DNA of 64,000 nucleotides from Desulfurococcales archaeon (GTDB lineage: Archaea > Thermoproteota > Thermoprotei_A > Sulfolobales > Ignisphaeraceae), in assembly GCA_027066265.1 (NCBI GenBank), contig JAMOOB010000490.1, positions 3,111 to 67,110 on the forward strand, read 5' to 3'. Below are positions 695-64,000 of the stretch, piece after piece. The notes below the pieces were generated by a model. The model saw only the letters and a list, made by a program, of their open reading frames with translations, was not told the DNA's origin and did not search any database. The stretch's first letter is position 1. Every line of letters starts with the position of its first letter. The translations under genes and the position numbers were made by a program.

Positions 695-711
695 CGTTGA
701 GAAGACGGGTC

Positions 712-5680: not shown

Positions 5681-5855
5681 GACCCCGATGGCTAAGGCTC
5701 TCCAACCGGGTGGTTGGAAACCAAATGGGGTTATCCAACCCTGTCCCTATCTCAGAGTGGACAACCTGAAGGAGGGGGATTGTGAAGAGAGCCCCCGGGT
5801 CTCTCTAGGGGGTAGTGGTATCCAGAGGAAGCCGGGGTCTCTATCTATGGTGTGG

Positions 5856-32037: not shown

Positions 32038-32228
32038 CTACCACCCACTACCTACTACCCACCACCTACTAGCCACCCACTACTCACTACCCACTACCTA
32101 CCAGTTTAAATACTCACTACCTACTCACTAGCTACTAGCTACCCACTACTCACTACCTACTAGCTACCCACCTACCCACCACTACCTACCTATCTACCTA
32201 CCTCCCTACCTACTCCAAGAAGCCTTAC
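32038..32228. repeat. G-depleted (CTAC/CCAC)n low-complexity tract
   Basis: About 190 bp built from CTAC, CCAC and CTACC units with very few G on the plus strand. TTTAAATA at 32105-32112 in the middle. Bounded by ATG 32037 (minus gene) and the palindrome at 32229. Confidence 0.7.
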
Positions 32229-32364: not shown

Positions 32365-33348
32365 GTGCCTCCGAAGGGGAGTAGATCCATCGTTGTATCT
32401 CGAGAGATCTACGATACGTTGTCTGAGATGGCTAGGAAGCTCGGCTTTAGAACCGTTGCCGAACTGCTTACGCATTTAGCAACGCTCTACAGAGCTATGG
32501 GCGAGACGTTCTTGCATACGCTAATCGGTACCGCCTTGGGTACCCAAGGTGGTACCCAAATCGGTACCCAAGTGGGTACGCAAGGCGGTATCCAAATCGG
32601 TACCGATGGACGTACGCTCATCGGTACCCAAGGCGGTACGCACGTGGGTACCCAAGTGGGTACCGATGGTGGTACCCAAGTGGGTACCACCTTGGGTACG
32701 CATGGTGGTACCCAAATCGGTACCGATGCTGGGGCTCTGAAGAGGTTGATGGATGAGGTTCTGAAGGTGTGTCTAAGGAGATGCCAGGATATGGTGAATC
32801 CGTTTACGGCTAAGATCGACGAGAGTGCTAGGAGGCTAGCTGAGCTCTACGAGGCGGTTCAGAGCCTTGCTACGAAGATAGATATGCTTAGCCAGAGCGG
32901 CACTGCTACACAGTTCGCTTCACATCAGTCTACGCAGGTAGGGGGATCTACGCAGCCTTCTGCTACATCGAGATCCTCTGGTAAGCGCCAGAGGAAGTCG
33001 GCTTGGGATATACTAGTCGAGCAGAAGGTTCTGTTCGAATCGGAGCTGGCGAAGAGGAGGGATAAGGATACGAGGGATAGGATATTCTCTAGCCTGAGAA
33101 AGCAGGGTGCAGTAGTCCTGGAGCTCAAGAACGAGCGTGTTGCTATAGAACCGCTGTTCTGGGACGAGTTCGTCAATAAGCTTAGCGAGATACGAACAGC
33201 AGACGAGGAAGAGGTGCGGAAGATCCTCGATCCGCTACAGTTCACACTCTTTCAAAAGCTCAGAGAATCAGGGCTACTCTACTTTGATGGAATCAACAAG
33301 AGATGGAGTCTAACGGAAGAAATCGGAAGATACTCTGAAGAAACATAG
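32365..33348 (+). CDS. ribbon-helix-helix-like DNA-binding protein with 17 x-x-G-T tetrad repeats
   Basis: GTG start. SIVVSREIYDTLSEMARKLGFRTVAELLTHL is RHH-like. Then LIGTALGTQGGTQIGTQVGTQ... and a coiled-coil/basic C-terminal half. Confidence 0.6.
   Translation: MPPKGSRSIVVSREIYDTLSEMARKLGFRTVAELLTHLATLYRAMGETFLHTLIGTALGTQGGTQIGTQVGTQGGIQIGTDGRTLIGTQGGTHVGTQVGTDGGTQVGTTLGTHGGTQIGTDAGALKRLMDEVLKVCLRRCQDMVNPFTAKIDESARRLAELYEAVQSLATKIDMLSQSGTATQFASHQSTQVGGSTQPSATSRSSGKRQRKSAWDILVEQKVLFESELAKRRDKDTRDRIFSSLRKQGAVVLELKNERVAIEPLFWDEFVNKLSEIRTADEEEVRKILDPLQFTLFQKLRESGLLYFDGINKRWSLTEEIGRYSEET
32521..32733 (+). repeat. 17 tandem 12-nt repeats (GGTACCCAAGTG-like) inside a CDS
   Basis: GGTACC recurs every 12 nt and encodes x-x-G-T tetrads. 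Confidence 0.8.
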
Positions 33349-33360
33349 CCACAGCTGTGG
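33349..33360. promoter_or_regulatory. CCACAGCTGTGG palindrome (perfect)
   Basis: Starts immediately after the TAG stop (33346-33348) of the RHH gene, in a convergent junction. Confidence 0.7.
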
Positions 33361-33386
33361 TGACAAAGTGTGAGGAGCGGTGAGTG

Positions 33387-33836
33387 CTAGGGCACGTTCT
33401 TGAGGAGCGCAACTATCTTTGGTATGAGTATGCTTGCCTTGTCTACGTTTGTAATAATATCGATCTTCATGCGCAGCACGCTATGCGGCTCGTTACCTAT
33501 GACAAGATGTATCACCTGGGCTCCCTGCGATCTCCTGGTATGCGACATGTAGACGGTAAGCGATACGGGGTGCCCGAACGGGCTCTTCTTTGCTTCTAGC
33601 CATAGATAGACCCTCTCGTTTCCTAGGATAGCCTCTACCTTTGGGGAGCTCCACGAGAACCCGCTCGGCTTAGAGAATAGCCTTCTGATAGCCGCGAAGA
33701 GACTCTGCGTAAGCTCCTCAAGAAGCTTAGCACCGTACTCGAACCCAGCATCAGCACCACGAAGCATCGCGCTCGTCTTGGTGGAGCTCCTCCTATCCAC
33801 AGCACTAGGCATGGAAACCCCTAGCGCTGCACGCAT
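33387..33836 (-). CDS. hypothetical protein
   Basis: 149-aa ORF. Alternative start ATG 33812 (GGGGTTTCC-ATG). Upstream CGCTACGCATATAT box shared with 33907..34377. Confidence 0.5.
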   Translation of the reverse strand: MRAALGVSMPSAVDRRSSTKTSAMLRGADAGFEYGAKLLEELTQSLFAAIRRLFSKPSGFSWSSPKVEAILGNERVYLWLEAKKSPFGHPVSLTVYMSHTRRSQGAQVIHLVIGNEPHSVLRMKIDIITNVDKASILIPKIVALLKNVP

Positions 33837-51605: not shown

Positions 51606-52556
51606 CTAGAGTACGCATCCCATGGAGGCTAGGTACGCGAGGTTGACTGTATCTGATGAGAATTCCAGACCCTCGTCGGGGAGTATATACACGCAACTTC
51701 TCGGTCCGAGTGGCTTCCTCGGTAGGTCCGCTCTTATCTCGACCTCCTGTACATCGTAGCGCCACACATCGACGTACTCCCTGTGGTCGCGACCCTCGTA
51801 CCTCATGTCATCTAGCGTTCTGTACGGCGTTAGGTACCTAACCTCGCTGAAGCCCCTCGCAATTGCCTTTCTGTCGCCTATCAGCAGCTCGGTTCTGAGC
51901 TCATCGTCTAGCGTGCGAACGATAAACATCGTCTGCGTCGCGTACTCGGATACGTCCTTGTACATCAGCCAGTGCGCAAGCGATAGCATCACATAGATGG
52001 CGTACGCGTTAGCGATGGTCGTAAAGCTCCTATCGGCGCTAAGAACCGCTCTCGCGAGACACCGTATCGGGATGGCGAGCGTCAGGACCCTGCCCATAAT
52101 GGTCTTCACCTCCACGGACCTCATCTCGAGACCGAGTACATTGATTAGCGCCTCAGGACGTGGTTCAGCCAGCGCATCACCGACGATAGGGAGGACCATC
52201 TCGATCTCGTGGTCCTCCATGGTTCTACTCACCATCACAACGAAGCGCCCTATCGCATCAATAACGATGTCCCTCACATCAACCGTACAGACGTAGAGAC
52301 GTAGCCTCGTGCCTAGGAGCCTAGACAGCTCCCTCTCGACCAGATCTAGATCAAGCACCCTAGTGGGCTCAACACCGAGCGATAGCAACCCCCTGTGACA
52401 CACCACAACAAGCGGCTCGATCCACACCTCGCGCTCCCTGATAACAAGATCGAACACAGCCGCAGCATCAACGCTACGACAATCGCTATACATGGTAGCG
52501 ATACGCCCTCTACACCCATCAACAGCGATAACATTAGCCCCGCGACTAAGCCCCAT
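51606..52556 (-). CDS. hypothetical protein
   Basis: Start trimmed to ATG 52556. Upstream on the coding strand: CTTATAC-N12-CCACAGCTGTGG-GGATCGCT-ATG. Confidence 0.6.
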   Translation of the reverse strand: MGLSRGANVIAVDGCRGRIATMYSDCRSVDAAAVFDLVIREREVWIEPLVVVCHRGLLSLGVEPTRVLDLDLVERELSRLLGTRLRLYVCTVDVRDIVIDAIGRFVVMVSRTMEDHEIEMVLPIVGDALAEPRPEALINVLGLEMRSVEVKTIMGRVLTLAIPIRCLARAVLSADRSFTTIANAYAIYVMLSLAHWLMYKDVSEYATQTMFIVRTLDDELRTELLIGDRKAIARGFSEVRYLTPYRTLDDMRYEGRDHREYVDVWRYDVQEVEIRADLPRKPLGPRSCVYILPDEGLEFSSDTVNLAYLASMGCVL

Positions 52557-52564
52557 AGCGATCC

Positions 52565-52576
52565 CCACAGCTGTGG
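52565..52576. promoter_or_regulatory. CCACAGCTGTGG palindrome (perfect)
   Basis: Lies 12 nt downstream of CTTATAC and 8 nt upstream of ATG 52556. Confidence 0.7.
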
Positions 52577-52812
52577 AAACAAGATACAGTATAAGGACGG
52601 GGGTTGTGGACTGAAGAATGTCTGGTGTTTTGTGATTAATGTTAATTGTTAACTCTTGTTGATTGATAGTCGATGTCCACTGATATTTTGAAGCCCCAGA
52701 TGTAAAAGTGGTTTAGGTACATACGATTAGTGTCGCTGCAGATCTTCGTCAGCGCGATTCCTGGGTTCGGCGTTTCCACCTCTCCACCTCCGCAGCTGTG
52801 GAGACGAAAATG

Positions 52813-52988
52813 GTTAGCTCTTCACGAAGCTGGTAAGCGGTTTAACCGGCTTGGGTCTCCTATCGATTAGATTAAGCCTGTCGCAGAGGATCGTAATCTC
52901 GTAGCTATCCGTATCTATCTCGATACGGTACGCTTCTCCACCTTGATGTAGCAGCTGCGGCTAGCATCGATAACGAGATGCTTCTTCA
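52813..52988 (-). pseudogene. possible frameshifted small gene
   Basis: ATG 52988 after CTGGGGGTAGAAC gives 24 aa (MKKHLVIDASRSCYIKVEKRTVSR). A -1 frame continues YRIEIDTDSYEITILCDRLNLIDRRPKPVKPLTSFVKS to a stop at 52813. Confidence 0.25.
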
Positions 52989-53106
52989 TGTTCTACCCCC
53001 AGAGAGATGATGTTGGTTGTGTTATGTATGATGTTATGTGAACATTGAATACTGAATTGCGTCGCGTGCTTGGCACTCCCCAAAAATAGTGTGTGGTGCT
53101 GCGGGT

Positions 53107-53703
53107 TCATTCTTGTGGGAGGAGGTTCTTGATTCTTGTGGTGATGAACTCGTGGGCTTTGGCTGGATCTGTAGATATGTATGTCTCGATCTCGAATCTT
53201 CCGTGACCCATCTTGGTTCCGCTCATGAGACCAACGTACCTGCCTCCGTAGGCTAGGGCAGCCACGAACTTGTCCACTACTGAGGCGTCTACCCTGGCTA
53301 CGAACGCTATGATGTGCACCGACGAGAGGTATTCATATGTTTCGCTCAGGTTCTTACCCTCCTTGCCGAATATCGGGCGCGTGTAGATGAACGGCTTCGG
53401 TCCGTAGACGTAGGCGTAGTTAGTGGCGATACCCTTCTCATCAACGATCTCGAAGTCGAGGATCTTCCTAACGACATCCTCCGGGTAGCCAAGAGCTCTA
53501 CACGCTCTTCTAAGCACGGCTCTGATCCACCTCCTCAAGATAATCGGTCTGCCATTGACATCCCTCGGAAACGCTCTGTCCAGATGCCTAGCCTGCTTAG
53601 AGTCGGCGATCCACCCCTTCTTGATGTACAGTGCAATCTCGTCCGCTGGAAGCACAGGTGCTCTGATGGGCGTCACAGGCTTGATTATGACACCTACATA
53701 CAT
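53107..53703 (-). CDS. hypothetical protein with RAMP-like (Cas7/Cas6-type) motifs
   Basis: MYVGVIIKPVTPI..., FPRDVNGRPIILRRWIRAVLRRA (resembles P.IPGSS.KG.LR) and the C-terminal glycine-rich loop VGLMSGTKMGHGRFEIE. The functional call is weak. Confidence 0.4.
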   Translation of the reverse strand: MYVGVIIKPVTPIRAPVLPADEIALYIKKGWIADSKQARHLDRAFPRDVNGRPIILRRWIRAVLRRACRALGYPEDVVRKILDFEIVDEKGIATNYAYVYGPKPFIYTRPIFGKEGKNLSETYEYLSSVHIIAFVARVDASVVDKFVAALAYGGRYVGLMSGTKMGHGRFEIETYISTDPAKAHEFITTRIKNLLPQE

Positions 53704-53739
53704 CGGGGAATTGGGGCTTGAGCGAGGCACAGCCCATCC

Positions 53740-53751
53740 CCACAGCTGTGG
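53740..53751. promoter_or_regulatory. CCACAGCTGTGG palindrome (perfect)
   Basis: TTTTT-palindrome-GGAT, upstream of the RAMP-like gene. Confidence 0.7.
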
Positions 53752-53798
53752 AAAAATGGTTGGAGCTGTATCTAGCATAAAGCGGATTTCTCCAATTG

Positions 53799-54059
53799 TT
53801 ATTCACAGATGTGTTTCTTGATCTCCTCCTTCAGCTCGTTAACGGTTTTCTCAAGGGCTGTGATAACGATCATAAGGAGTTCCTCGGCTAGCCTAGGATC
53901 GTTGATGGGTACGCCGCAGATATACACCGTGCCTTCCTCTATGCTGATTCCAACGGTTTGTCTGGTTCTAGCCGCTTCGATAGCATCGAGCAGGTTGATA
54001 TATGTGTCTAGAAGGATTCGAAGATGCGTTTTGTTGGAGAGCTGGGGCTCATACTCCAT
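53799..54059 (-). CDS. small hypothetical protein
   Basis: 86-aa ORF with CCACAGCTGGGGGCAAGAA-ATG context. Confidence 0.5.
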   Translation of the reverse strand: MEYEPQLSNKTHLRILLDTYINLLDAIEAARTRQTVGISIEEGTVYICGVPINDPRLAEELLMIVITALEKTVNELKEEIKKHICE

Positions 54060-54092
54060 TTCTTGCCCCCAGCTGTGGAAAAAGCTGTAGGG

Positions 54093-55442
54093 CTACGATG
54101 TGACCATCCTGATGGCTCCTCGTATAAGCTCCTCGACTGTGTTCACCTTTACGTGCCTGAAGTGCTTTAGCCATCCTGGTCTCCACGACGGTGGCAGGAT
54201 TATGAATCCGACCCTGTACCTGCTCGCAACCTCCTTGGCGAGGTCCTCCGGAACCTCGTCGATCCCGTCGGAGATCACGATGTATACCCTGTCGCGTCTG
54301 CCGATCCGCTTGATCGTCTTCAGCACCTCCTCGATGCTCGTACCTCCATCGGCGCAGATGGTGAGGAGCGTTCTCACAACGTCTCTGGGGCTAACCTTCT
54401 CGACCTCCGTGTCGAAGAGGTAGACCTCGCCGCCGAGCTTCCTGTACAGCGCTAGAGCTAGCCCCGCTGCGCCGGCGATCTTCTCGACGAGCTGCCCGGT
54501 CTCCGAAGGCATCGTCTCCGCCATGCTGCCGCTCTTATCCACGAATATCACCGGTCTGAAAGCGGCTGCGCGCTGGTAGACAACGGCTGTTCTGCTGAGG
54601 AGCCTAAGCGCGAAGAGCTCGAACGGCAGCACGTGCTCCGTCGTCGTCAGGTCCACGATCTGCCTAGGATCGCGCATTATTCCGACACCCGTTATGCCAC
54701 CGAACACGGCTGTCACATTCATGTGTTCGAGGGATGTCGGTACGGATGATAGCGCTAGCCTGAACATCCTCAGAGCGTTCTTCAGGATCCTGACGCGGTT
54801 GCGGAACTCATGGGGACGCTCGAGAAATGTCCACACCGATAGCGCATCATGGCTGTAGCCAGAGCAGCCACCCAGCATAGCCGCCGCCTCCTCTGCCTCC
54901 GCCTTCCCCTGCTGGTACTCCTGAACAGCCTGTAGCGCCGCCTGTGCAGCCGCTAGGGCTGCCCTCGTAGCCCTGTCGATGAGCTCCTGAAGCGCTTGGT
55001 TCAAGGCTTGACCTGTCAGCGTCTGTTGCTGTAGCTGCTTGATCTTCTGCTGAGCAACCTGCGTATCCAGCTCGGACAGCAGGTTCTTGAGGAACTGGTA
55101 CGCAGCGATAACAGCGAGATCCACAGAGCCAGCAGTAACCCTGTTCAGCCTGTAGAACTCGTCGGAAGAAAGGTAGTTCTGCATAATCTTGTGCCACACG
55201 ATACTCGCAGACTTCTTGACGTTTCTCATCACCGTCTCATAGGATTTGTAGTGAGACATAAACGCATCGAAAACCATGTAGAACCTCGGTCTGACCCTAG
55301 ACCTCCACAGCAGCCTAAACACATCGTTAGTGAACTGCGCATAGTACTCAACAGGCAGCCCCTCCAGGATACCCATCTTGAACACCGATTTCGCCAAGCC
55401 AGAACGGTAAAACGCTTCTTCTTGAGCCTTGTCAAGACTCAT
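54093..55442 (-). CDS. von Willebrand factor A (VWA/MIDAS) domain protein
   Basis: VIFVDKSGSM (DxSxS MIDAS) in the C-terminal half. Start trimmed to ATG 55442 after CCACAGCTGTGGGGTTGGAA. Confidence 0.8.
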   Translation of the reverse strand: MSLDKAQEEAFYRSGLAKSVFKMGILEGLPVEYYAQFTNDVFRLLWRSRVRPRFYMVFDAFMSHYKSYETVMRNVKKSASIVWHKIMQNYLSSDEFYRLNRVTAGSVDLAVIAAYQFLKNLLSELDTQVAQQKIKQLQQQTLTGQALNQALQELIDRATRAALAAAQAALQAVQEYQQGKAEAEEAAAMLGGCSGYSHDALSVWTFLERPHEFRNRVRILKNALRMFRLALSSVPTSLEHMNVTAVFGGITGVGIMRDPRQIVDLTTTEHVLPFELFALRLLSRTAVVYQRAAAFRPVIFVDKSGSMAETMPSETGQLVEKIAGAAGLALALYRKLGGEVYLFDTEVEKVSPRDVVRTLLTICADGGTSIEEVLKTIKRIGRRDRVYIVISDGIDEVPEDLAKEVASRYRVGFIILPPSWRPGWLKHFRHVKVNTVEELIRGAIRMVTS

Positions 55443-55450
55443 TTCCAACC

Positions 55451-55462
55451 CCACAGCTGTGG
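55451..55462. promoter_or_regulatory. CCACAGCTGTGG palindrome (perfect)
   Basis: Lies 8 nt upstream of the VWA gene ATG 55442. Confidence 0.7.
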
Positions 55463-55520
55463 ATATGGACAACAAGCGTAGTCATCCCCCAAACAAATGT
55501 CTATTGTTTGATGTGGTTTG

Positions 55521-55680
55521 GGTGCACCTAAACCTTTGCAGAGGGACGCAAGAATTGAGAGAGGTGCACCGAGATAGCGTCAAGACCTGGGTTTACATAG
55601 CCGATACAAAACATTGTGGAAGCGTTCAATGTTGCAGCCCCTGTATATACCGCTCCATCGCCGTAGCCGTCTGATGGTTT
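55521..55680 (-). repeat. GGTGCACC-box element plus duplicated promoter/leader, copy B
   Basis: GGTGCACC at 55521 and 55563, with the identical 35-mer at 55634-55668. Lies between the moxR-like and VWA genes. Confidence 0.7.
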
Positions 55681-55699
55681 GCTCAGCTATGTAAAAAGG

Positions 55700-56863
55700 C
55701 TAGGTGTTTCCGGCTAGCTTCTTCAGCATCTCCTTCGTCTCAGCAACCTTGTTGAGGTACTCCCTAGCCTGCGCAATGATAGCCTCTGCTCTTGGTTTGA
55801 GCCACGGCTTGTTGGCGATCTTGTTGAGGTCGAAGTCGACAATTTCCTGAAGGATCTTCTCGGCTTCGTCAAGTCTACAGCTTCTTATCAGCTCCTTGGC
55901 TCTGCTGAGCTTCTCGGCAAGCTCGCCGACCTCTCCGAGACCCTCCATAATGATCTTCTTGATCTGCTCATGCTCACTCCTATCGCGTGCTAGATACGGC
56001 AGTATCTTTATCGCTCCCTCCATAACGTTCTCTAAGCGCACACCGAACAGCGCCAGATAGGCGGCGAGGAGCTTCGGGAGCTTCTCGATGATGGTTCTAT
56101 CGCTAACGATAATGCCTTTGGCTCTGAGCTCCTTGACGAAGTTGATCACGTTGACATGGTACAGCTTGATGAAGTCCATATCCCTTATCCTGCTCCTTAT
56201 CAATGTGATGGTATAGCCATGAAGCGTCCTAACGTCGTCCATAGACGCAACGGGCTTGATCTCGTGCCCGTTGAGCCATCTAGCCTCCAGCGCTTTCAGT
56301 ATCAGCACATCATCGTTTAGGTAGTCAAAGAATATTCTGATACTGAATCGGTCGTAGAGAGCCTGCAGCTCCTCGTCCTGTGGCACCTCGTTACTAGCAC
56401 CAAATAAGCTCCACAGCTTGGCAGGAACCTCAGCACCGGACATCGGGTCGTAGAGTATCCTCTCCTGCATTAGAGCCAGCAAAGCGTTTAGAATAGCGCT
56501 GTTAGCCTTGAACACCTCGTCGAGGAACACTATCTCAGCATCCTTGATCTTCGTCCATTTCCTCACAAGATCTCCTCGTTCTCTAAGCGCTGGAATGTCG
56601 AACGGACCAAGAATCTCGATATCGCTGGTAAACTTGGTTAGTAGATAGCTGTAGAAGCTGGCGTTCAGCAGCTTGGCAAGGGTCTTGATAGTCATCGTCT
56701 TGGCTGTGCCCGGCGGGCTGATCATGACGGCGTGTTCCTTGGCAATCAATGCTAGGACAAGCATCGTATTAACCTCGTCGTGACCGATGACAACCGAGTT
56801 CAGAACGTTTAGAACCTGCTTAACGTTATGACGAGCGTTTTTCACTTCTTGAGGAACGGACAT
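55700..56863 (-). CDS. MoxR/RavA-type AAA+ ATPase
   Basis: VIGHDEVNTMLVLALIAKEHAVMISPPGTAKT (Walker A) and VFLDEVFKANSAILNALLALMQER (Walker B, RavA-like). Start trimmed to ATG 56863. Confidence 0.85.
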   Translation of the reverse strand: MSVPQEVKNARHNVKQVLNVLNSVVIGHDEVNTMLVLALIAKEHAVMISPPGTAKTMTIKTLAKLLNASFYSYLLTKFTSDIEILGPFDIPALRERGDLVRKWTKIKDAEIVFLDEVFKANSAILNALLALMQERILYDPMSGAEVPAKLWSLFGASNEVPQDEELQALYDRFSIRIFFDYLNDDVLILKALEARWLNGHEIKPVASMDDVRTLHGYTITLIRSRIRDMDFIKLYHVNVINFVKELRAKGIIVSDRTIIEKLPKLLAAYLALFGVRLENVMEGAIKILPYLARDRSEHEQIKKIIMEGLGEVGELAEKLSRAKELIRSCRLDEAEKILQEIVDFDLNKIANKPWLKPRAEAIIAQAREYLNKVAETKEMLKKLAGNT

Positions 56864-56889
56864 TTCAACCCCCAAAACAAACAAGGTGT

Positions 56890-57342
56890 TTACCAGGGCT
56901 CGGTAACGATCTGTACAGCTTTGATCACTTCGAAGCCTTTGAACTCGTGTATCTTGATTGTTCCGTCTGCATAGGTTGTTGCTGTTCGTCTATCTGGAGC
57001 CTCCTCGATGATTCTCTTGGCTTCCTCCCACGTTCCTACCGTTGCTATAGCCTCCATCTTCGCGTAGAGCACTGTAAATCCATACCTCTTCGATAGCTCA
57101 ACAAGCCGCGCTATAAACGATAGCGGTAGCACAGGCACAATTATCTTCGCATTGTGCTTCTGAGCAATTTCAACAACAGTTTCAGCATTAGGAACAGTTC
57201 CATCTACCTGAATAATCCTGATGTTCCCTAGCTTCTCCTTGAGCCTCTGGATCTGTACCGGCAACGGCTTGTGACGGCTAACCCATAGAACTACAGTTAC
57301 CGGCTCGGGATCGTTATAGATTTCAACGACTCTGAACGACAT
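56890..57342 (-). CDS. hypothetical protein
   Basis: 150-aa version starting MSFRVVEIY after CCACAGCTGTGGGGATCTCC. Confidence 0.55.
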   Translation of the reverse strand: MSFRVVEIYNDPEPVTVVLWVSRHKPLPVQIQRLKEKLGNIRIIQVDGTVPNAETVVEIAQKHNAKIIVPVLPLSFIARLVELSKRYGFTVLYAKMEAIATVGTWEEAKRIIEEAPDRRTATTYADGTIKIHEFKGFEVIKAVQIVTEPW

Positions 57343-57350
57343 GGAGATCC

Positions 57351-57362
57351 CCACAGCTGTGG
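57351..57362. promoter_or_regulatory. CCACAGCTGTGG palindrome (perfect)
   Basis: TTTT-palindrome-GGATCTCC-ATG 57342. Confidence 0.7.
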
Positions 57363-57384
57363 AAAACCCCAAAGAAAACAGTGT

Positions 57385-58689
57385 TTATCGTTGGGAAACC
57401 GTCTTCTCTAGCTCTTCCACCATCTTCTTGACTGCTTCATAGAGCTTTCTGCGATACTCAAGGTCTTCGTTGAGTCTCTTGAGGTATGACATCTTCTTCT
57501 CCGCTTTAGCCTTCTCAATCCTTTCCCTCAGCTCCTTCAACTCACTCTCAAGCAGATACTTAGCCTCGTTCAAGATATCGAGTGCCACTTCCGGTTCCAC
57601 GTATATCGGTATAACCTTCACAACGTACTTGCTGAGAAGCTTCGGGTAGTCGGGGCGAACCTTCGCCAGCGCCGGCATCTCGGAGAGCTTCCGTCGTATC
57701 ATATCAGCAACCTCCTCAGCAATCTTCACCGCTTCGTCAGTTACCGCAATCCATAGACCAGCCTGTCTCTCAGAGCCAAGATGTATGAAGTATCTACGTG
57801 CCTTCTTCGTTGCTTCCGTCCTGATAGTTTCGAGAGCACTGGCCAGCGCCCTTCTTAGCTGGTCATCGAAGTCCCTGATCTCGATAAAGCCCTTATCGGT
57901 CTTCTCAATACGTACACTCTGCACCAAGTAGCGGGAGGGTCTCACCCATCGCAGGATATAGAGCTTGACCAGCTGTGTCTTCTGGGGAACCTCCTTCTCT
58001 GTGGTAGCAGTTGTGGTAACAGCCTTAGCCTCCTGAACCTCCTCTTCCTCACCTTCCTCTTCGCCAAGAATCCGCTGTGCTATCTTCATCTTCATCTCTT
58101 CGCTTAGCTCCTCCTTCTCCTCCTCTGTTTCCTCCTGTTCTTCCTCTTCCTCTCCACGGATCTTCTTTAGCCATTCCTCGATGTCTTTAGCAATCTCTTC
58201 GAGCTTCTGCTTGTTCAGAACGAATACAACCGTCCCTGTATACTTCAGCTTACTCCCTGGCTTCCACGCCGGTATCGCTATCAACTCTGGATGCTCCTTC
58301 TCGATCTTTCTCTGTAGGCTGAACGCTATCGCCCATGCCTTCTTCTTGTCCTTGTCGTTGAAGACACCCTCGTATGCCGTCATCATCTTTGCAAAGATCT
58401 CGACATTCTTCTCCTCATACACTGCTCTATCCTGATACATCAGCTTTATTTCGAAACGCATACACTGTCCATTGACAGCGATATCGCTGCACATATTAGC
58501 ATCAGCAAAGTAGTAGGTGATCTCGGTCTTCAGAATATTTCCTAGCTCACGTCTATAGCCAACAATAGCTCTATCACTATCGTCAATAGAGTAATGCTTC
58601 GTATTCTTGATGTATACATCTTTGATGATCGATACGAGAAGATCCTTGACAGAGGTATACCTAACAGAACCATTTCCATTAGATGACAT
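57385..58689 (-). CDS. hypothetical protein with central poly-acidic linker
   Basis: 434-aa version starting MSSNGNGSV after TTTGGGGGTTGCA. Contains an EEEEEQEETEEEKEE linker. Confidence 0.6.
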   Translation of the reverse strand: MSSNGNGSVRYTSVKDLLVSIIKDVYIKNTKHYSIDDSDRAIVGYRRELGNILKTEITYYFADANMCSDIAVNGQCMRFEIKLMYQDRAVYEEKNVEIFAKMMTAYEGVFNDKDKKKAWAIAFSLQRKIEKEHPELIAIPAWKPGSKLKYTGTVVFVLNKQKLEEIAKDIEEWLKKIRGEEEEEQEETEEEKEELSEEMKMKIAQRILGEEEGEEEEVQEAKAVTTTATTEKEVPQKTQLVKLYILRWVRPSRYLVQSVRIEKTDKGFIEIRDFDDQLRRALASALETIRTEATKKARRYFIHLGSERQAGLWIAVTDEAVKIAEEVADMIRRKLSEMPALAKVRPDYPKLLSKYVVKVIPIYVEPEVALDILNEAKYLLESELKELRERIEKAKAEKKMSYLKRLNEDLEYRRKLYEAVKKMVEELEKTVSQR

Positions 58690-58715
58690 TGCAACCCCCA
58701 AACAAACAGGGTAGA

Positions 58716-58835
58716 TCATTCATCGTCGAAGCAGATGTAGACAGTACCATCATCGGGGTCATAATCCCATGCACCACCGTATGGAGCCGAGAAGTTGGGT
58801 TCGGTATAGAGAGCCATACAGTTCTTCCTCTCCAT
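58716..58835 (-). CDS. 39-aa small ORF (below the ORF-track cutoff)
   Basis: My translation: MERKNCMALYTEPNFSAPYGGAWDYDPDDGTVYICFDDE. Preceded by the conserved TTTTTGGGGGATCGAA-ATG module. Confidence 0.35.
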   Translation of the reverse strand: MERKNCMALYTEPNFSAPYGGAWDYDPDDGTVYICFDDE

Positions 58836-58865
58836 TTCGATCCCCCAAAAACAAGGAGGGTTGTA

Positions 58866-59102
58866 TCAGCGTGGAGGTGTATAGGGTGTGACCACGAGTC
58901 GTAGGCTCGACCTAACAGCCTTCTCTATCTCTCTACGCACTTTTCTGGATCTATGTCTTGCTGTAATGGGTATATTATCGGGCATCAGCTTGCTAACAAT
59001 GGTTTTGATAACATATGTTCTGAGACGCCTCGGATCATATCCATCATCGACGAGTAGCGTACCAAACAACTCATTACCTAGATAAACCCTCACGAGTTTC
59101 AT
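58866..59102 (-). CDS. small hypothetical protein
   Basis: 78-aa ORF with TTTTTGGGGGATCGAA-ATG context. Confidence 0.5.
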   Translation of the reverse strand: MKLVRVYLGNELFGTLLVDDGYDPRRLRTYVIKTIVSKLMPDNIPITARHRSRKVRREIEKAVRSSLRLVVTPYTPPR

Positions 59103-59204
59103 TTCGATCCCCCAAAAAGAAAGAAAAAGAAGATGAGAATAGGGTGAGAATAGCCAGACAGGCAGACGACAGCACGAAGCAGACTGCTGAGTTCGCTAGA
59201 TTTT

Positions 59205-59465
59205 TCAGAGAAAGACAGGCAGACACCTAACACAGATATACATAGTATCATCGACATTTACACACGCGTTATCGCGCTCCTCAAGAAGCTTGAGGAGCTT
59301 CTCTAGCTCCCTCTCCTCAACGGAATTAATAGTTGCACGAATAGCATTCCCTAGCTGCTGTAGCGAAGCAACAGCAACAACCTCACAATCGCATGGACTT
59401 GATATACCTGTTAATCTATCGTAACAAACACTGCACCTCTCAATGATATACAGCTCCAACTTCAT
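59205..59465 (-). CDS. small Cys-rich protein
   Basis: 86-aa ORF with CSVC...CDC...CVRC. Confidence 0.5.
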   Translation of the reverse strand: MKLELYIIERCSVCYDRLTGISSPCDCEVVAVASLQQLGNAIRATINSVEERELEKLLKLLEERDNACVNVDDTMYICVRCLPVFL

Positions 59466-59517
59466 ATTTCAATACCCCAGCTGTGGTTATGGTAGAACCC
59501 CCAAAGAAAAACGGTGT

Positions 59518-60045
59518 TTAAGATCGATTAGGAGATAGGTTTGGATATAGATAGCCGCGGTAAACACACTCAGCCTCCTCATCCTCGTAGAATACACAAT
59601 GATTAACATTGATACTGAGAACACCAGCTTCTACAAGCATCCATAGATCGACAAACTTCTTCAGCATCAATATATCGTCATGTCTGAGTATCCTAGGTCT
59701 CTTCTGCAGCACGTCTCTAAGAATCTCTAGCACTTTTGCAAGTTCTCCCATGTTGTTTCTCCACAGCCAATTTATTAACCAACCTAGTCTTTCCTCCTTG
59801 GTTCTCTTAACACTTCCACTTCTCCTAACCTCTACTATGTAGCATTCATATTCATAGGTCTTCCTCACAGTTATTTCAATCCCTAGTAGCTTCAGCACCT
59901 TTCTTGCCTTTACGAATCTTTTCCCCTTTGGTATCTTTGGTATCCATAGCACCGTAGAATCATTTGGAGAGACAATATGCTGTATAATTCTTGCAGCAAA
60001 TGATACGGCATCGTAAAACGTATCATATATTTTCTTATCAATCAT
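59518..60045 (-). CDS. hypothetical protein
   Basis: 175-aa version starting MIDKKIYD after TTTGGGGATTGAA. Confidence 0.55.
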   Translation of the reverse strand: MIDKKIYDTFYDAVSFAARIIQHIVSPNDSTVLWIPKIPKGKRFVKARKVLKLLGIEITVRKTYEYECYIVEVRRSGSVKRTKEERLGWLINWLWRNNMGELAKVLEILRDVLQKRPRILRHDDILMLKKFVDLWMLVEAGVLSINVNHCVFYEDEEAECVYRGYLYPNLSPNRS

Positions 60046-60088
60046 TTCAATCCCCAAAGAAAACGAAGGTGTTGCAATGGATTTGGGG

Positions 60089-60421
60089 TTATCGACTAAG
60101 AAGTTTGTTGACAAATACCTCGAACTCATTGGGAGTCATCTCGGCAGTTATCTCCACTTCGCCACCAGAAGTGATGGATACAACGTAGATGTAGAGGTAG
60201 TGCGTAGCTCCACAGGTACCACATTTTACGTACTTGATAACCTCGTTGATATCTGCCCTAAACACCTCTACTCTTCTGCTGAGTCTATCTACAACTATGA
60301 CCTCATCAGTTTCACTAGCGTTAACTATGGCTACATAGTCGTCGTCCTTAATAGCGTTGACTACCCTAAAAACGATGTTTAGTGTATCGAGATCTAGCTC
60401 TGCAACACGAATCATTTCCAT
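60089..60421 (-). CDS. small hypothetical protein
   Basis: About 108-aa ORF containing KCGTCGATH. Palindrome variant CTACAGCTGTGG directly upstream. Confidence 0.5.
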   Translation of the reverse strand: MEMIRVAELDLDTLNIVFRVVNAIKDDDYVAIVNASETDEVIVVDRLSRRVEVFRADINEVIKYVKCGTCGATHYLYIYVVSITSGGEVEITAEMTPNEFEVFVNKLLSR

Positions 60422-60449
60422 TCCCCACAGCTGTAGAGAAGGGAGAACC

Positions 60450-60478
60450 CCGTAGCCCCGCCAGTGGCGGAGCTACGG
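60450..60478 (-). other. GC-rich interrupted 12-bp hairpin
   Basis: CCGTAGC-C-CCGCC-AGT-GGCGG-A-GCTACGG, between genes 60579..60797 and 60089..60421. Confidence 0.5.
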
Positions 60479-60578
60479 AGCGGGGTCTGCGACCCCCAAA
60501 GAAACGGTGTTTGTATGGGTTTAAAACAGTATTGTAATCGGGAAGAAGCAGATGTTTTTCGTAGCAATCACAAGGCGT

Positions 60579-60797
60579 TTATTTAAGCGAGACACCGAGG
60601 AGGGTATAGATAGCAGCTAGCACAGATGCTGGAATCTCATAGGCTATAACATTAGGATCATCCTCATGCCAGAAGCTGAACTGCAAATTCATGTCTACTA
60701 TAATAGCAAAGTCGTCGTAGATGATGGTTCTATTGTCCTCAATAATTTCCAGCCGAGCAGGCTGAGCGTATTCATAACATAACCTAAACCTGATCAT
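60579..60797 (-). CDS. small hypothetical protein
   Basis: 72-aa ORF. CCCCCAGTCTGGGGGATCGAA-ATG abuts the GC-rich island. Confidence 0.5.
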   Translation of the reverse strand: MIRFRLCYEYAQPARLEIIEDNRTIIYDDFAIIVDMNLQFSFWHEDDPNVIAYEIPASVLAAIYTLLGVSLK

Positions 60798-60814
60798 TTC
60801 GATCCCCCAGACTG

Positions 60815-61858
60815 GGGGTTGTGGGGAGCCGGGGGCCTACCCCTTCATCCCTCCCCGTGCTTCCCCCACCCCGCATCCCACCCTTCTTGGGGTGGGGTTA
60901 GCCGGGGTAACCGGGCCCCGCCACATCCCCCCTTCCCCGCCCCCGGGCTGTTCACCCGGGGTACGGGTACGGGGTCGGGGGGGCCCTGGAGGCCCCACCG
61001 CGGAGAACCGCGGCTTCGCCCCCTGGGGTGCGGGGCTACCCACGCCCGAGTTACCTCGGGCGTGGGCGGGCCTTGGTCGGGGGCAGACCCCCGACCCCCC
61101 TACTCCTCTTCGCGAAGCCCCCGTGGCCCACCCCGTGGGCCCGGGGGGACTGCTCCCGTTCCCCGCGGTCCTTCCCCCGAGAGGCTGGTGGGCCATTACC
61201 CCACCAACACCCCTCGGGGTGGACCACGGTTCACAACGGCGGCGGGGACCCCTTCGGGGCGGGCTCCCCTCGGGGATGAACCGGGGGTTCATCCCATCCC
61301 CGGGGGTCATCCCCAACAGGTCGCACCCCGGGGATTGGTCCCCCCGTCGCAGCCCCCCACGCCCCCACCCCCTACCGGGGCTAACCCGGTAGGAAGGTGG
61401 GGGCAGACCCACGGGCAGGCCACGGGGGCACGGCGCGGGGCGGGGAGGAGCCTATGCCCAACCCCCTGCCCACCCCTCATCCCAACCCTCCTCACCCCAC
61501 ATTGCTGCGTTTACCTCGCCTCACCCGCCCACCCAAGCCCCCACCTTAAAGCCCCCCGGGGGCTCCGCCCGATCGGGCGGAGGGGTGGGCGGGTTCATCG
61601 GCTCATCGGGTTCCTGCTAATGACAGCGGTGTTTGGGGGATCATCGTCCTCGGGCGGATCGGGATGAGCAGGGGGTTCTGGGCGGCTCCTCCCCGCCCCC
61701 ACTGCCTCGCTTGCATCGCTCCTTCGGGCGGGGTGCCGCATCCCCCGCCCGGCGTTGCCCCGGGTTGGGTTGCGCCCGGGGTCGCCGGGCGGGTCTCGGT
61801 TGGTCATCCGCGCCCCGCCTTGCGGCGGGGCGCTCCCGTCCCCCGCCCGGGGCTCTCC
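60815..61858 (-). ncRNA. candidate large GC-rich structured RNA (strand and RNA status inferred)
   Basis: About 80% G+C. Perfect hairpins at 61039-61066, 61076-61095, 61118-61147, 61273-61295, 61371-61393, 61563-61582 and 61810-61833. ORFs in all frames are P/G/R-rich. BRE/TATA upstream on the minus strand. Confidence 0.35.
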
Positions 61859-61883
61859 GTGTATACTATAGGGGGAGCAGGGG

Positions 61884-61897
61884 TTAATATACTTTTC
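61884..61897 (-). promoter_or_regulatory. BRE/TATA-like promoter GAAAAGTATATTAA
   Basis: The minus strand reads GAAAAG-TATATTAA about 25 nt upstream of the GC-rich island. A perfect palindrome (61933) lies about 40 nt further upstream. Confidence 0.4.
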
Positions 61898-61932
61898 TAT
61901 CTGTGGAGGGATTGAGAATCGGTGGCTTGTTC

Positions 61933-61944
61933 CCACAGCTGTGG
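61933..61944. promoter_or_regulatory. CCACAGCTGTGG palindrome (perfect)
   Basis: Lies between the GC-rich island with its promoter and the GGCTCGCA array. Confidence 0.7.
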
Positions 61945-61995
61945 ATACGAGAAGGATGTGGAGAGAGCACAGAGGTCTTCTTTCCACGTCTTGTT

Positions 61996-62408
61996 GGTTC
62001 GCACTATTCTCGTGGGCACGGTCTTTCGGCTCGCATGGACTCGCTCCGCATGCTAAACGGGGCTCGCATATCCTCCCTCTACACGCGAGTTCGGTTCGCA
62101 CACGGTTTCGCCACACGGTTCTACGGATCCGCACGCGAGATCTCTACACCTCGTCTCCGGCTCACATGAGTAGGCTCGACACGAGCAAATGGTTCACACG
62201 AAATCTATCAACATATCTCGGCGGTTCGCATCCGCATAAAGTTTCTCCATATCGAGCAAAGCCTCGCGGCTCGCACAGTAAACCTACCCAGGGTCTTCTC
62301 GGCTCGCACACCTCTTCTGCGCACAGGAGACCTCGGCTCGCATCGGAACTCTTCCCAGGCCGGAGCCGGCTCGCAACGCAGTCCTGCACATTCATCGAGG
62401 TGCTCGCA
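61996..62408. repeat. 13-unit array of GG(C/T)TCGCA boxes with ~32-33 bp period
   Basis: Boxes at 61996, 62028, 62061, 62093, 62125, 62159, 62191, 62223, 62268, 62301, 62335, 62368 and 62401. The intervening ~23-nt segments are unrelated. Confidence 0.75.
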
Positions 62409-62416
62409 CAGGGGGT

Positions 62417-63337
62417 CTAGAGAGCTTGGGTGGCTTCGGCCCTCCTCTCGATCGCTAGGGGCACCTCCCTGCCCCGCGCGACGACGATTATCGGCGGGTA
62501 GTACATGTTCCTGATCCCGGCGAAGACCACGTACGGCGGTCTGTACGGCAGGCCCAGGATCGCGCAGTAGGCCTCGTAGTACTGCGAAAGCCATACCTTG
62601 GCCACGAGGCGGTACGCTCTGAGCGTAGCGTGCGACACTATAGACGACATCAGCTCCCTAGCCCTAGACCTGGTCACCGAGACGCCGAGGCTCTTAAGAG
62701 CCTCGGCAAACCCATCAACGTCCCTGCTCCTAGCAGCCGCAGCAACAGCCCCAACCCTATCACCGTCGATGGCATCGACGGCTGTACCCAGGTACCTACC
62801 GAGCTTCTGCGGAACGAGCTTCCTGATCTCCCGCTCCAGCCACTCCTCGAAGAGCGACCTGTAGAACCTGACGTTCCTAACCAGCTGCCTAGCGATCTGC
62901 CCCGTCACAGCCTTGCAGATCCTGTGGTAGCACTCGGCGCTACCGCACTTCTCGACGTAGTACTCCCTCGGCGCCCATCCGCACCACGCCCACAGCTTGC
63001 TAACGGTCTGAAACCTCCACGGATGGATGTTCCCTAGAACCAGACCGCTCAGCACAGTACCCAGCCCAGGAAGGTACCTGAGGTACTGCTGGTACACCGG
63101 GTGCCGCCTAACGAGAGGCTCCATCAGCTCCTCGAGCTTCTCCTTACCCATCTCAGCAGCCCTAACGATCTCCGGCGTCAGCTCGCACGGAAAGCCCTGC
63201 TCCCTACACACCTTCGCATAGAAGTTCTTGTAGCTCTGAACACGCTTCCTCTGGATCCAGTACAGACGCGAAACCTCGTAGAGCCTCATCTCGATAGACC
63301 TAACCGACTCGGGACAGCGAGACCAGTCGATGGGCAT
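62417..63337 (-). CDS. protein with IS110-family Transposase_20-like (HhH) segment; no obvious DEDD domain
   Basis: YLRYLPGLGTVLSGLVLGNIHPWRFQTVSKLWAWCGWAPREY resembles the IS110 L.iPGiG...a..l.aei.d..rF.s...l.ay.Gl.P signature. GGTGGAGGG lies before the ATG. Confidence 0.5.
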   Translation of the reverse strand: MPIDWSRCPESVRSIEMRLYEVSRLYWIQRKRVQSYKNFYAKVCREQGFPCELTPEIVRAAEMGKEKLEELMEPLVRRHPVYQQYLRYLPGLGTVLSGLVLGNIHPWRFQTVSKLWAWCGWAPREYYVEKCGSAECYHRICKAVTGQIARQLVRNVRFYRSLFEEWLEREIRKLVPQKLGRYLGTAVDAIDGDRVGAVAAAARSRDVDGFAEALKSLGVSVTRSRARELMSSIVSHATLRAYRLVAKVWLSQYYEAYCAILGLPYRPPYVVFAGIRNMYYPPIIVVARGREVPLAIERRAEATQAL

Positions 63338-63396
63338 AGCCCTCCACCGCTTCTCCAGCTATAAAGCACAGAGAATATAAGGTCTTTAGCATTGGT

Positions 63397-63408
63397 CCAC
63401 AGCTGTGG
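63397..63408. promoter_or_regulatory. CCACAGCTGTGG palindrome (perfect)
   Basis: Lies about 60 nt upstream of the IS110-like gene ATG 63337, with TATA-like CTTATATTC in between. Confidence 0.7.
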
Positions 63409-63661
63409 AGAGGGATAGAACGATGTGTAGCGCCAGAGACACACGTGTTCCACTATATACAGCGGTGTTACAGCTGTAACTATCGAGGAGATGAATAGCG
63501 GTAGACGAGGTTAAACCTCGTAGCACGGGTATCTGCACGGGAGTGGAGCCGTGTCCGCGAGAAGCATAGTCAAGCCGGTATGCATCGTGCTGGCGATATG
63601 CATAGCTACGGGTATCGCGGATATCGTGATAGACATCCTTTCGCGGTCTAGCGGTGCAGAC

Positions 63662-64000
63662 ATGTTCGCTGCTAGGATGGATAGCTATGACGATGTGCCG
63701 AACATCATTTCCACAGCTGTGGACAGCTGCTATATGTGTCCGCGCAGCGGTGATCCGCTTGATCTGGCTATGAAGGTGCTTCTCCGGTACAGGTACTGTC
63801 TGCACTACCCCTTCGACGAGGTGTGGCTGCCGATGACGGTGGCGATGACGAGGTGCGGAACATGTATGGACCTAGCGCTGATGCTGGTAGCGTCGGAGAT
63901 ATCCTCTGGTCACGAAGCGCTTCTGCTGCTGATCGACACCGGAGAGGAAGAGATCGGGCATGCAGCTGCGGCTATCAGGACGAGCAGCGGGTGGATCGTT
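63662..64000 (+). CDS. partial CDS, possible transglutaminase-like/papain-fold Cys peptidase
   Basis: Open frame from ATG 63662 (or ATG ~63733 just after the palindrome) to the window end. RCGTCMDLALMLVASE...IGHAAAAI looks like a Cys...His core. Confidence 0.35.
   Translation, partial: MFAARMDSYDDVPNIISTAVDSCYMCPRSGDPLDLAMKVLLRYRYCLHYPFDEVWLPMTVAMTRCGTCMDLALMLVASEISSGHEALLLLIDTGEEEIGHAAAAIRTSSGWIV

Follow-up and report, generated by a model that had tools for sequence, protein, structure and literature searches.

The guanine plus cytosine (G+C)-rich island at positions 60815-61858 of the window, by which is meant the whole stretch of 64,000 nucleotides (nt) analysed here (contig JAMOOB010000490.1 of the Desulfurococcales archaeon assembly GCA_027066265.1), is probably the template of a functional, hyper-stable, multi-domain RNA of approximately 1.04 kb, read from the minus strand. 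The window is part of a virus- or plasmid-like element, in which the island lies upstream of a gene cluster encoding a MoxR-type AAA+ ATPase and a VWA protein. Hyper-GC islands heading the same cluster in related elements form a new RNA family with strong compensatory covariation, a solid result, and the window island is a probable member or analogue of this family. Such RNAs, which precede the MoxR/VWA module in a clade of mobile elements that inhabit hyperthermophilic archaea, constitute a class that had not been described previously. The original prediction, made from the letters of the sequence alone, had left a choice between a large structured RNA and a DNA structural element such as an origin, a resolution site or a G-quadruplex (G4)/i-motif cluster; a large structured RNA of the minus strand is the best supported of these, and the DNA alternatives found no support.

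Composition and coding status of the island

Windows of 200 nt within 60800-61899 have a G+C fraction of 0.69-0.785, with flanking values of 0.41 (60600-60799) and approximately 0.57 (61800-61999), and the island overall has approximately 74% G+C. Nowhere else in the reconstructed element of 71,470 bp, which averages 0.551 (55.1%), does a 150-nt window reach 68% G+C. The sharp jump in G+C noted in the original prediction is a bounded plateau, unique in the element.

The island is non-coding. The G+C content at codon positions 1, 2 and 3 is flat (0.72/0.74/0.73) and the period-3 signal is 0.2-0.8, compared with 16-96 in the long real genes of the element, which confirms the earlier view that the overlapping open reading frames (ORFs) are pseudo-ORFs. 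Frames are open in several registers on both strands, as expected at 74% G+C. One of them, a 282-amino-acid (aa) plus-strand ORF, matched itself alone in a search of 5.8 billion proteins; a second member of its cluster differs solely in the translation of the start codon.

Hairpins and folding

All seven hairpins listed in the original prediction are present at their coordinates, and six of them are perfect, with stems of 8-12 bp. The island and its structural parts, from the 5' to the 3' end of the proposed RNA, are as follows.

60815-61858, minus strand: hyper-GC island body, the proposed structured RNA of approximately 1.04 kb, recognised by G+C, absence of codon periodicity and folding z-score
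61851-61858, minus strand: 5'-terminal 8-mer GGAGAGCC, complementary in 7 of 8 positions to 60823-60830
61810-61833, minus strand: hairpin of 10 bp with a GCAA (GNRA) loop, perfect stem
61357-61781, minus strand: central imperfect rod of approximately 425 nt, centred on hairpin 61563-61582; self reverse-complement alignment of 451 columns, E = 2e-11
61563-61582, minus strand: hairpin of 8 bp with a GAUC loop, apex of the rod domain, perfect stem
61371-61393, minus strand: hairpin of 9 bp with flanks CCACCUUCC...GGGGGUGG (61360-61406), perfect stem, best window match of covariance model R1 (see below)
61273-61295, minus strand: hairpin of 10 bp, GGGAUGAACC/GGUUCAUCCC, perfect stem
61118-61147: hairpin given as 6+7 bp in the original prediction, present, not among the six perfect ones
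61075-61096, minus strand: hairpin of 9 bp carrying GGGUCUGCCCCC, which is repeated at approximately 61399-61413, perfect stem
61039-61066, minus strand: hairpin of 12 bp capped by GUAA, perfect stem
60986-61075, minus strand: three-hairpin junction module, suggested by a match of covariance model R2
60823-60830, minus strand: 3'-terminal 8-mer GGCUCCCC, partner of 61851-61858

By a uniform counting rule the island has 14 perfect hairpins, whereas 300 dinucleotide shuffles average 1.13 and never exceed 8. The repeat GGGGGCAGACCC was also found as described, at approximately 61079 and 61399. Two perfect long-range helices absent from the earlier list, at 61437-61452/61684-61699 (16 bp) and 61523-61534/61583-61594 (12 bp), lie within the rod domain, the pairings of which recur in both minimum free energy (MFE) and centroid folds. 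The junction module comprises the GUAA hairpin, a hairpin with an ACCCCA loop and a GCCGCGG-UUCU-CCGCGGU hairpin, and its layout resembles a three-way junction of the related family. The terminal 8-mers possibly form a closing helix.

A comparison of folding energy with shuffled sequence on both strands had been proposed together with the original prediction, and in this comparison the island lies strongly below shuffled sequence on each. Over 999 nt the minus strand folds to -707 kcal/mol (z = -12.4) and the plus strand to -670 kcal/mol (z = -11.6). With a second shuffler and a length of 1 kb, the island reaches z = -16, and 16 other 1-kb windows range from -3.7 to +1.1. The MFE of the minus strand is the lower at 37 C (-741.6 vs -699.2 kcal/mol for the plus strand) and also at 85 C (-273.7 vs -244.9 kcal/mol). 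Much of the folding signal of the island is long-range pairing.

Related islands and their covariation

Relatives of the element were reached through homologs of its MoxR protein, which number thousands and of which the nearest non-self ones are 51-63% identical; their contigs were fetched and scanned for spikes of G+C. Gene-free islands of 70-78% G+C were found at L020 9434-10024, L021 7561-8281, L080 7195-8000, L051 967-1560 and L050 1-488 (at the contig end), in L052 (a fragment) and at L209 2259-2906 (the same as in L210). These islands are 0.5-0.8 kb in length and mutually homologous, with E-values of 1e-4 to 5e-98 by BLAST and of 1e-14 to 1e-148 by nhmmer, and they have no match in Rfam, nor by BLAST in phage and plasmid collections. 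A GC-rich stretch in L069 was excluded, since, within a contig of 63% G+C, it looks like Ala-rich coding sequence.

The setting of the related islands is also shared. Each is on the same strand as MoxR, 0-3.5 kb upstream of it, and heads a cluster of homologs of a 444-aa protein, a 160-aa protein, MoxR and VWA that is conserved in all relatives. A TATA box, TTTATAA or TTTATATA as read by eye, precedes the rise in G+C by approximately 25-30 nt in every one of them. Each island ends in a helix with GGGGU(G), the next gene starting 0-50 nt further on, and in L020, L051 and L209 no oligo-T follows. The downstream layout deviates in two relatives: in L021 the RNA is followed by a T-run (AAAATTTTC) and AT-rich promoter-like sequence, and in L080 the interval from the RNA to MoxR contains a TATA-like GGTATATATG.

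Compensatory change is extensive in this family. The alignments hold two to four sequences and the structures were predicted from those same alignments, which flatters the counts, so that slid alignments serve as the fair comparison. In the hairpin domain shared by L020, L021 and L080, 10 of the 23 pairs show compensatory change and the proportion of paired cells is 89.9%, against 43-59% in slid controls, a level that none of 500 shuffles reached. G.U pairs outnumber A.C cells by 12 to 1 in this domain, which identifies the MoxR strand as the sense strand and argues for pairing of RNA rather than of DNA. Between L080 and L209, which are 79% identical, 34 of 207 pairs are compensatory, as opposed to 2-7 when slid (again reached by 0 of 500 shuffles), and all cells pair, compared with 45-54%. 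One stem of this pair of islands flips five consecutive pairs beneath a kept GCGA tetraloop, and a closing helix (helix 1), with three compensatory pairs, joins the 5' and 3' ends. Whole hairpins have been inserted or deleted between relatives.

Two other features were seen in the related contigs. In L016 (5320-6450), L017 (1490-2698) and L018 (6543-7751), which are lower-GC relatives with conjugation-type genes (for a T2SSE ATPase and a 1310-aa VirB4/TraG-like protein), a gene-free, A+T-rich gap of 1.1-1.2 kb (37-39% G+C) upstream of the MoxR cluster replaces the GC island. L051 has a second G+C-rich stretch at 576-900 (mean 0.69), which may be either coding sequence or RNA, upstream of the palindrome and promoter of its island.

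The window island compared with the family

The window island is a positional and compositional analogue of these islands. It is hyper-GC, gene-free and on the gene strand, and it lies upstream of the genes for the 444-aa, 160-aa, MoxR and VWA proteins, 3.9 kb from MoxR. As in the family, L021 and L080 deviating, a TATA-like box stands ahead of the rise in G+C and a start codon follows closely, with no intervening oligo-T. The sense strand of the family has G of approximately.40, C.33, A.15 and U.11, and the minus strand of the window island is almost the same (G.407, C.335, A.153, U.105); such a ranking, G>C>A>U, is typical of the stable RNAs of hyperthermophiles. The greater stability of the sense fold over the antisense fold and the G.U ratio are further features common to the window and the family.

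A short motif is likewise shared. GAUGA occurs eight times on the minus strand of the window island (0.43 expected) and twice on the plus strand, and in the family it is enriched on the sense strand only, with 3-6 copies per member (0.2-0.45 expected) and a pooled count of 27 against 1.97 expected. AUGAA and UGAAC are also enriched on the sense strand. A K-turn, as in L7Ae-binding RNAs of the box C/D type, was considered as the basis of GAUGA and rejected, a crude geometry scan giving 12 candidates vs 9.9 in shuffles.

Direct sequence similarity was sought with BLAST, nhmmer and two covariance models of sub-domains, R1 (the covarying hairpin domain) and R2 (the three-way junction), of which the calibration was shortened and the E-values are rough. 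BLAST of the window island against the family gave E = 8e-4, for one pairwise comparison, at the same place as the match of R1 (61360-61406, 14 bits), and the nhmmer match is colinear over 61400-61246. The R2 match at 60986-61075 (16.7 bits) is the best in the 64 kb on both strands, and the ACCCCA loop recurs in it; in a control of approximately 1 Mb of bacterial DNA of 65-72% G+C, R2 gave three hits of at least 17 bits. R2 misses L020 and L021, which are genuine members, and the lack of a significant match is therefore compatible with membership of the family.

Promoter, strand and downstream genes

The sequences flanking the island that the original prediction had pointed out, namely a B recognition element (BRE)/TATA-like element, a palindrome and the ATG context of the next ORF, are all present, the last together with a hairpin. 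These and the downstream genes of the conserved cluster are listed below.

61933-61944, both strands: palindrome copy CCACAGCTGTGG, 36 nt upstream of the TATA-like box
61884-61897, minus strand: BRE/TATA-like element GAAAAG-TATATTAA, recognised by sequence
60804-60818, minus strand: terminal hairpin CCCCC-AGUCU-GGGGG, recognised by sequence
60579-60797, minus strand: first downstream ORF, 72 aa, without homologs
55700-56884, minus strand: gene for the MoxR-type AAA+ ATPase (PF20030, 3.8e-49)
54093-55475, minus strand: gene for the VWA protein, a member of the conserved cluster

The element GAAAAG-TATATTAA is among just 16 A/T-only runs of at least 8 nt on the minus strand of the 71.5 kb and resembles the ATTTAAA-type boxes that precede other genes of the element; it is a putative promoter. 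All flanking genes, in common with the TATA-like box, are on the minus strand. No oligo-T terminator was found after the island. The ORF at 60579-60797 starts 18 nt past the end of the plateau, and the train of genes then leads to those for the 444-aa, 160-aa, MoxR and VWA proteins. The 3' arm of the terminal hairpin, together with AUC, is a G-rich run of Shine-Dalgarno-like character, 6 nt ahead of the start codon (AUG) at 60797, and a role of this hairpin in translation is suggested. The original prediction had also argued for the minus strand from GNRA loops on the two longest stems; both loops are on that strand, and the argument is thin, as they account for two of the five tetraloops in the MFE fold.

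The 12-bp palindrome CCACAGCTGTGG is present in 31 perfect copies in the 71,470-bp circle (approximately 0.004 expected), with an extended form T-NN-CCACAGCTGTGG-NN-A. It usually stands 2-10 nt ahead of the start codon of a minus-strand gene, in many cases preceded by a short T-run; examples beyond 61933 are found at 57351, 55451, 53740 and 52565. The 10-bp core of the palindrome recurs in relatives of quite different G+C (L020, 19 copies; L015, 8; L065, 7; L051, 5; L050, 4; L080, 4). The clade palindrome CACAGCTGTG lies upstream of the islands of L020 and L051, as in the window, and it is found at the apex of a hairpin within the RNA island of L209 (GCCACAGCUGUGGC). The palindrome probably serves a clade-specific regulator as operator, promoter or signal between cistrons.

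Evidence weighing against a functional RNA

A number of observations weigh against the reading of the window island as a functional minus-strand RNA. Firstly, both strands fold almost equally well, and the excess of G.U pairs in the minus-strand fold (27 vs 19 on the plus strand) is not significant. The sole mismatch between the terminal 8-mers is A.C on the minus strand and G.U on the plus strand, which favours the latter. The window 32501-33500 reaches z = -12.8 merely by virtue of a palindromic tandem repeat, and a large z therefore proves dyad symmetry and not function; alternating runs of G and of C can also inflate such scores. In 200-nt windows the z-scores of the island are just -1.6 to -3.9 (genome mean -0.38, standard deviation 1.23).

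Secondly, the link of the window island to the family is short of significance (BLAST, E = 8e-4 in the one pairwise comparison; nhmmer, E = 0.19; R1, E = 0.21; R2, E = 0.051), and R1 and R2 point to different parts of the island. No homolog of the island was found among 206 fetched loci by nhmmer and BLAST, and the known copies are all 100% identical, so that the covariation evidence is that of the relatives. Within the family, a test with single-sequence MFE structures in L050 and L051 gave no clear signal, with 14 pairs kept and 20 broken on the sense strand, compared with 17 and 15 on the antisense strand. Finally, the K-turn reading of GAUGA failed, and no candidate uses the first GA of the motif.

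Proposed mode of action

From the sequence we infer that the island is transcribed, and that it is co-transcribed with the operon. Transcription would begin approximately 20-25 nt past the TATA-like box, at approximately 61860-61866, in the first bases of the G+C plateau. The RNA would then fold into long GC helices, comprising the closing helix, the 425-nt rod and modules with three-way junctions, which are predicted to be stable at the temperature of the host. No oligo-T terminator follows and the first ORF begins only 18 nt after the plateau, and for this reason the RNA would probably be the 5' domain of a transcript that runs into ORF 60797-60579 and along the train of genes to MoxR and VWA. 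Action in cis might consist of shielding the 5' end of the message, or of gating translation of the first gene via the G-run of the last hairpin. Alternatively, the domain may be cut out as a stable RNA.

Between the stand-alone RNA and the 1-kb leader of the original prediction the evidence is nearly balanced. Should the RNA be functional, a cis-acting leader domain would be slightly ahead, with marginally more than an even chance, and a free trans-acting RNA would fall somewhat short of one.

Rival readings

Taken over all readings of the island, a free-standing, trans-acting large RNA is a tentative possibility; by analogy it might act as a scaffold, as a ribonucleoprotein partner (for example of the adjacent MoxR/VWA proteins) or as a decoy for a host factor. 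The island has its own TATA box, and the ends of the RNA may be paired, by the covarying closing helix in the family and by the 7/8 terminal complement in the window. The modular architecture, with the gain and loss of whole hairpins, is as in large ornate RNAs, and GAUGA is enriched on the sense strand of all members. In addition, the immediately downstream gene is not conserved and the linkage to MoxR/VWA is, and the layouts of L080 and L021, in which promoter-like or terminator-like sequence follows the RNA, would suit a separate transcript. However, oligo-T is lacking after the islands of the window, L020, L051 and L209, the gap to the next start codon is 0-50 nt, and no processing signal was identified.

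A DNA or replication element, either part of an origin beside a GCGAGCC array and a 306-aa gene or the template of a G-rich primer transcript that would form an R-loop as ColE1 RNA II does, is improbable. The island does abut an array of 13 copies with a period of approximately 33 nt (62002-62381), downstream of this Transposase_20-like gene; its non-template strand is G-rich (G.41 vs C.34), with 64 runs of at least three G, which favours R-loops; and dyad symmetry is near-equal on both DNA strands. Nevertheless, the islands of the relatives follow the MoxR cluster and are not beside a 306-aa homolog or an array, the sole weak match lying 10 kb away in L021, and the distant homologs of the 306-aa gene have the array without a GC island. 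The helices accept G.U and not A.C on the gene strand, as in RNA and not in a cruciform. No turning point of cumulative GC skew was found at the island, and origins need an easily melted A+T-rich stretch, whereas the island has 74% G+C throughout and the array lies outside it. The origin, the resolution site and the G4/i-motif cluster of the original prediction gain nothing from helices of RNA type and from a linkage to MoxR rather than to the array.

It is slightly less probable still that the island is a functionless odd insert, that is, foreign high-GC DNA or a decayed or expanded palindrome whose dyads arise from alternating runs of G and C. The island is a sequence orphan, it adjoins a block of low-GC orphan genes (58.4-60.8 kb) that suggests a plastic region, and the z-scores of run-rich sequence are easily inflated. 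Its bounds, however, coincide exactly with a promoter-like element and a start codon, and it occupies the same position as covarying RNAs of like composition and motifs in at least six related elements. Moreover, assemblies made independently from several datasets agree exactly on its sequence, and six perfect hairpins of 8-12 bp with long-range helices of 12-16 bp exceed what shuffles produce.

A Pro/Gly/Arg-rich protein, such as that of the 282-aa plus-strand ORF at 60819-61667, can be set aside almost entirely: gene callers did call this ORF in three assemblies, but its codon positions are flat in G+C with a period-3 value of 0.16, long frames are open in several registers on both strands, no homolog was found in the protein search above, and it would interrupt a long series of minus-strand genes as the one gene on the plus strand.

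Relation to known RNAs and systems

Known families were sought with the 4227 covariance models of Rfam 15, at the family gathering thresholds and also in E-value mode. The whole window had no match at gathering thresholds, which bears out the original statement that no rRNA, RNase P RNA, signal recognition particle (SRP) RNA or group I/II intron was recognisable; GOLLD, ROOL, OLE, HEARO and CRISPR repeats were also among the families covered. In E-value mode the island gave chance-level matches to miRNA and hairpin families alone, the best being CRISPR-DR9 (30.5 bits vs a threshold of 45). This match, at 61803-61836 over the hairpin 61810-61833, was rejected as a CRISPR repeat, being sub-threshold, present in a single copy and without an array, and is attributed to chance. 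BLAST of the island against 50,697 phage/archaeal-virus records and 72,556 plasmids gave no match. Scans of IMG/VR with the 306-aa protein, MoxR and two conserved blocks of the family gave nothing or chance 16-mers, and a scan of GTDB genomes with a MoxR alignment gave cellular MoxR alone, at no more than 44% identity and mostly from myxobacteria. Nothing comparable for archaeal mobile elements was found in the searchable literature or in Rfam.

In 2002 Klein, Misulovin and Eddy reportedly found that a local spike of G+C in a hyperthermophile genome of lower G+C marks a structural RNA gene. The GC islands of hyperthermophiles are cellular RNAs (rRNA, tRNA, SRP RNA, RNase P RNA, C/D and H/ACA small RNAs) or small novel RNAs. 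The window island shares their order of G>C>A>U, but it matches none of these RNAs, is 1 kb long and is borne by a mobile element. The place of the island between promoter and start codon, and the sequestering of a G-run in its last helix, resemble structured 5' leaders such as riboswitches, RNA thermometers and ribosomal-protein leaders; however, the known leader elements of prokaryotes are all 5-10 times shorter than the island, which has no recognisable aptamer, and the mRNAs of archaea mostly lack leaders or have short ones.

The 'ornate large' RNAs GOLLD, ROOL and OLE are non-coding, multi-domain RNAs of at least 0.5-0.8 kb, of unknown or poorly known function, which have been studied by cryo-electron microscopy (PMC12286853). 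GOLLD and ROOL are typically borne by phages and prophages and gain or lose hairpins in a modular manner, as do the hyper-GC RNAs. The three known RNAs are bacterial, whereas the hyper-GC RNAs come from elements of hyperthermophilic archaea, match them in neither sequence nor structure, have 70-78% G+C, and lie directly upstream of protein genes, probably in the same transcript. If the island gave rise to a free RNA, which is possible and not the favoured outcome, this would be the first counterpart of GOLLD and ROOL in an archaeal mobile element, one evolving too fast for the members of its clade to align.

Looser likenesses can be drawn with three other systems. As functional analogies alone, without homology, the island may be compared with phi29 pRNA, a structured RNA encoded by the element that docks a packaging ATPase encoded nearby, and with ColE1 RNA II, a folded G-rich transcript of approximately 550 nt with a dedicated promoter. 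The weak Transposase_20 match of the 306-aa neighbour recalls the bridge RNA of IS110, a structured non-coding RNA beside a Transposase_20 gene. An IS110 recombinase with its bridge RNA was rejected, the neighbour having no DEDD/RuvC-like domain and the island being 1 kb rather than approximately 150-250 nt. Furthermore, bridge RNA lies in the non-coding end of its element, whereas the island is set apart from the 306-aa gene by a 560-nt repeat array and a promoter of its own, and the related islands are not linked to a gene of the Transposase_20 type.

Neighbouring module of the 306-aa gene

The 306-aa gene (62417-63337, minus strand) has a weak match to Transposase_20 (21.6 bits, residues 84-154) and to PHROG 4285 ('transposase'), and no DEDD domain. 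The array directly downstream of it (62002-62381) consists of approximately 13 copies of (U)GCGAGCC, with the variants GCGAACC and GUGAGCC, at a period of 32-34 nt. Among 5.8 billion proteins the 306-aa protein has just two homologs, both very distant and from low-GC, phage-like contigs. Each homolog is likewise followed by an array (L005 1860-2590 and L008 10895-11600), in which 10-15 copies of GCGAGCCA, accompanied by a second box (GACAACCA or GAAACCCA), recur every 36 nt. Protein and array form a conserved module, for which iterons, a centromere-like site or an RNA array may be considered. Synteny through this neighbour was of no use in finding relatives of the island, the homolog loci holding the repeat array and no GC island.

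The source element

The two ends of the window are bridged by 7,470 bases of a 100%-identical metagenome contig (L001), which overlaps window positions 1-1867 and 52417-64000, giving a reconstructed molecule of 71,470 bp. The source is a circular or circularly permuted genome of approximately 71.5 kb. The longest public contig of the element has 72,206 bp, and the element was recovered at 100% identity in ENA, Logan, JGI and NCBI assemblies. Nearly all of its genes are on one strand. They include those for a 2060-aa protein with a Laminin_G_3 domain, GT4 glycosyltransferases and an SF2 helicase. Genes for a CCA-adding enzyme of class II, the bacterial type (PolyA_pol and HD; L001 7273-8733), and for a serine resolvase (L001 3399-4073) lie in the part of L001 beyond the window. 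No tRNA was found in the window. The pairing of MoxR with VWA is reminiscent of bicaudaviruses and monocaudaviruses, the MoxR proteins of which are just approximately 26% identical. Some relatives of the element have conjugation-type genes instead, hence the label "virus- or plasmid-like". Labels of the metagenome-assembled genomes that hold homologs (Desulfurococcaceae, Thermosphaera, Infirmifilum) and sample names (hot springs, vents) point to hyperthermophilic Thermoprotei as hosts.

Other parts of the window have features of their own. Immediately downstream of the island, 58400-60800 is a block of low G+C (0.37-0.45 vs 0.55 for the element), filled by small orphan ORFs (72, 110, 203, 86 and 78 aa) whose coding signal is weak. 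The intergenic interval 60422-60578, which separates the 110-aa ORF from the 72-aa one, has a G+C-rich cluster of hairpins (ccccgtagccccgccagtggcggagctacgg...; 200-nt z = -4.1), possibly a small RNA or something akin to a terminator, and, at 60425, a degenerate palindrome copy (CCACAGCTGTAG). The tandem repeat of the high-scoring window 32501-33500 consists of approximately 20 units of 12 nt with a GGTACC palindrome (GGTACCCAAGNN) at 32481-32740, in a plus-strand ORF (32365-33348), where the units presumably encode a peptide repeat of four residues; short repeats rich in CTACC/CCACC lie just upstream (32016-32200). Finally, 5401-5800 is A+T-rich (37-48% G+C), with folding z-scores of -5.2 and -4.0 and TATA-like minus-strand runs at 5154, 5547 and 5571, and is a candidate regulatory or origin region.

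Significance

Gene callers annotate islands of this kind as hypothetical proteins, here one of 282 aa, and the class is thereby invisible in current annotations. To our knowledge, no large structured RNA from an archaeal virus or plasmid has been described. If the RNA is real, the few very large 'ornate' RNAs would gain a branch from hyperthermophilic archaea. The family is suited to structural work, combining predicted hyper-stability (approximately -270 kcal/mol at 85 C) with compensatory covariation. A module of the MoxR/VWA kind is implicated in the extracellular growth of the tails of Acidianus two-tailed virus, and the constant linkage of the islands to MoxR/VWA leads to a testable idea, that of an RNA-protein partnership or of control of the operon by the RNA.

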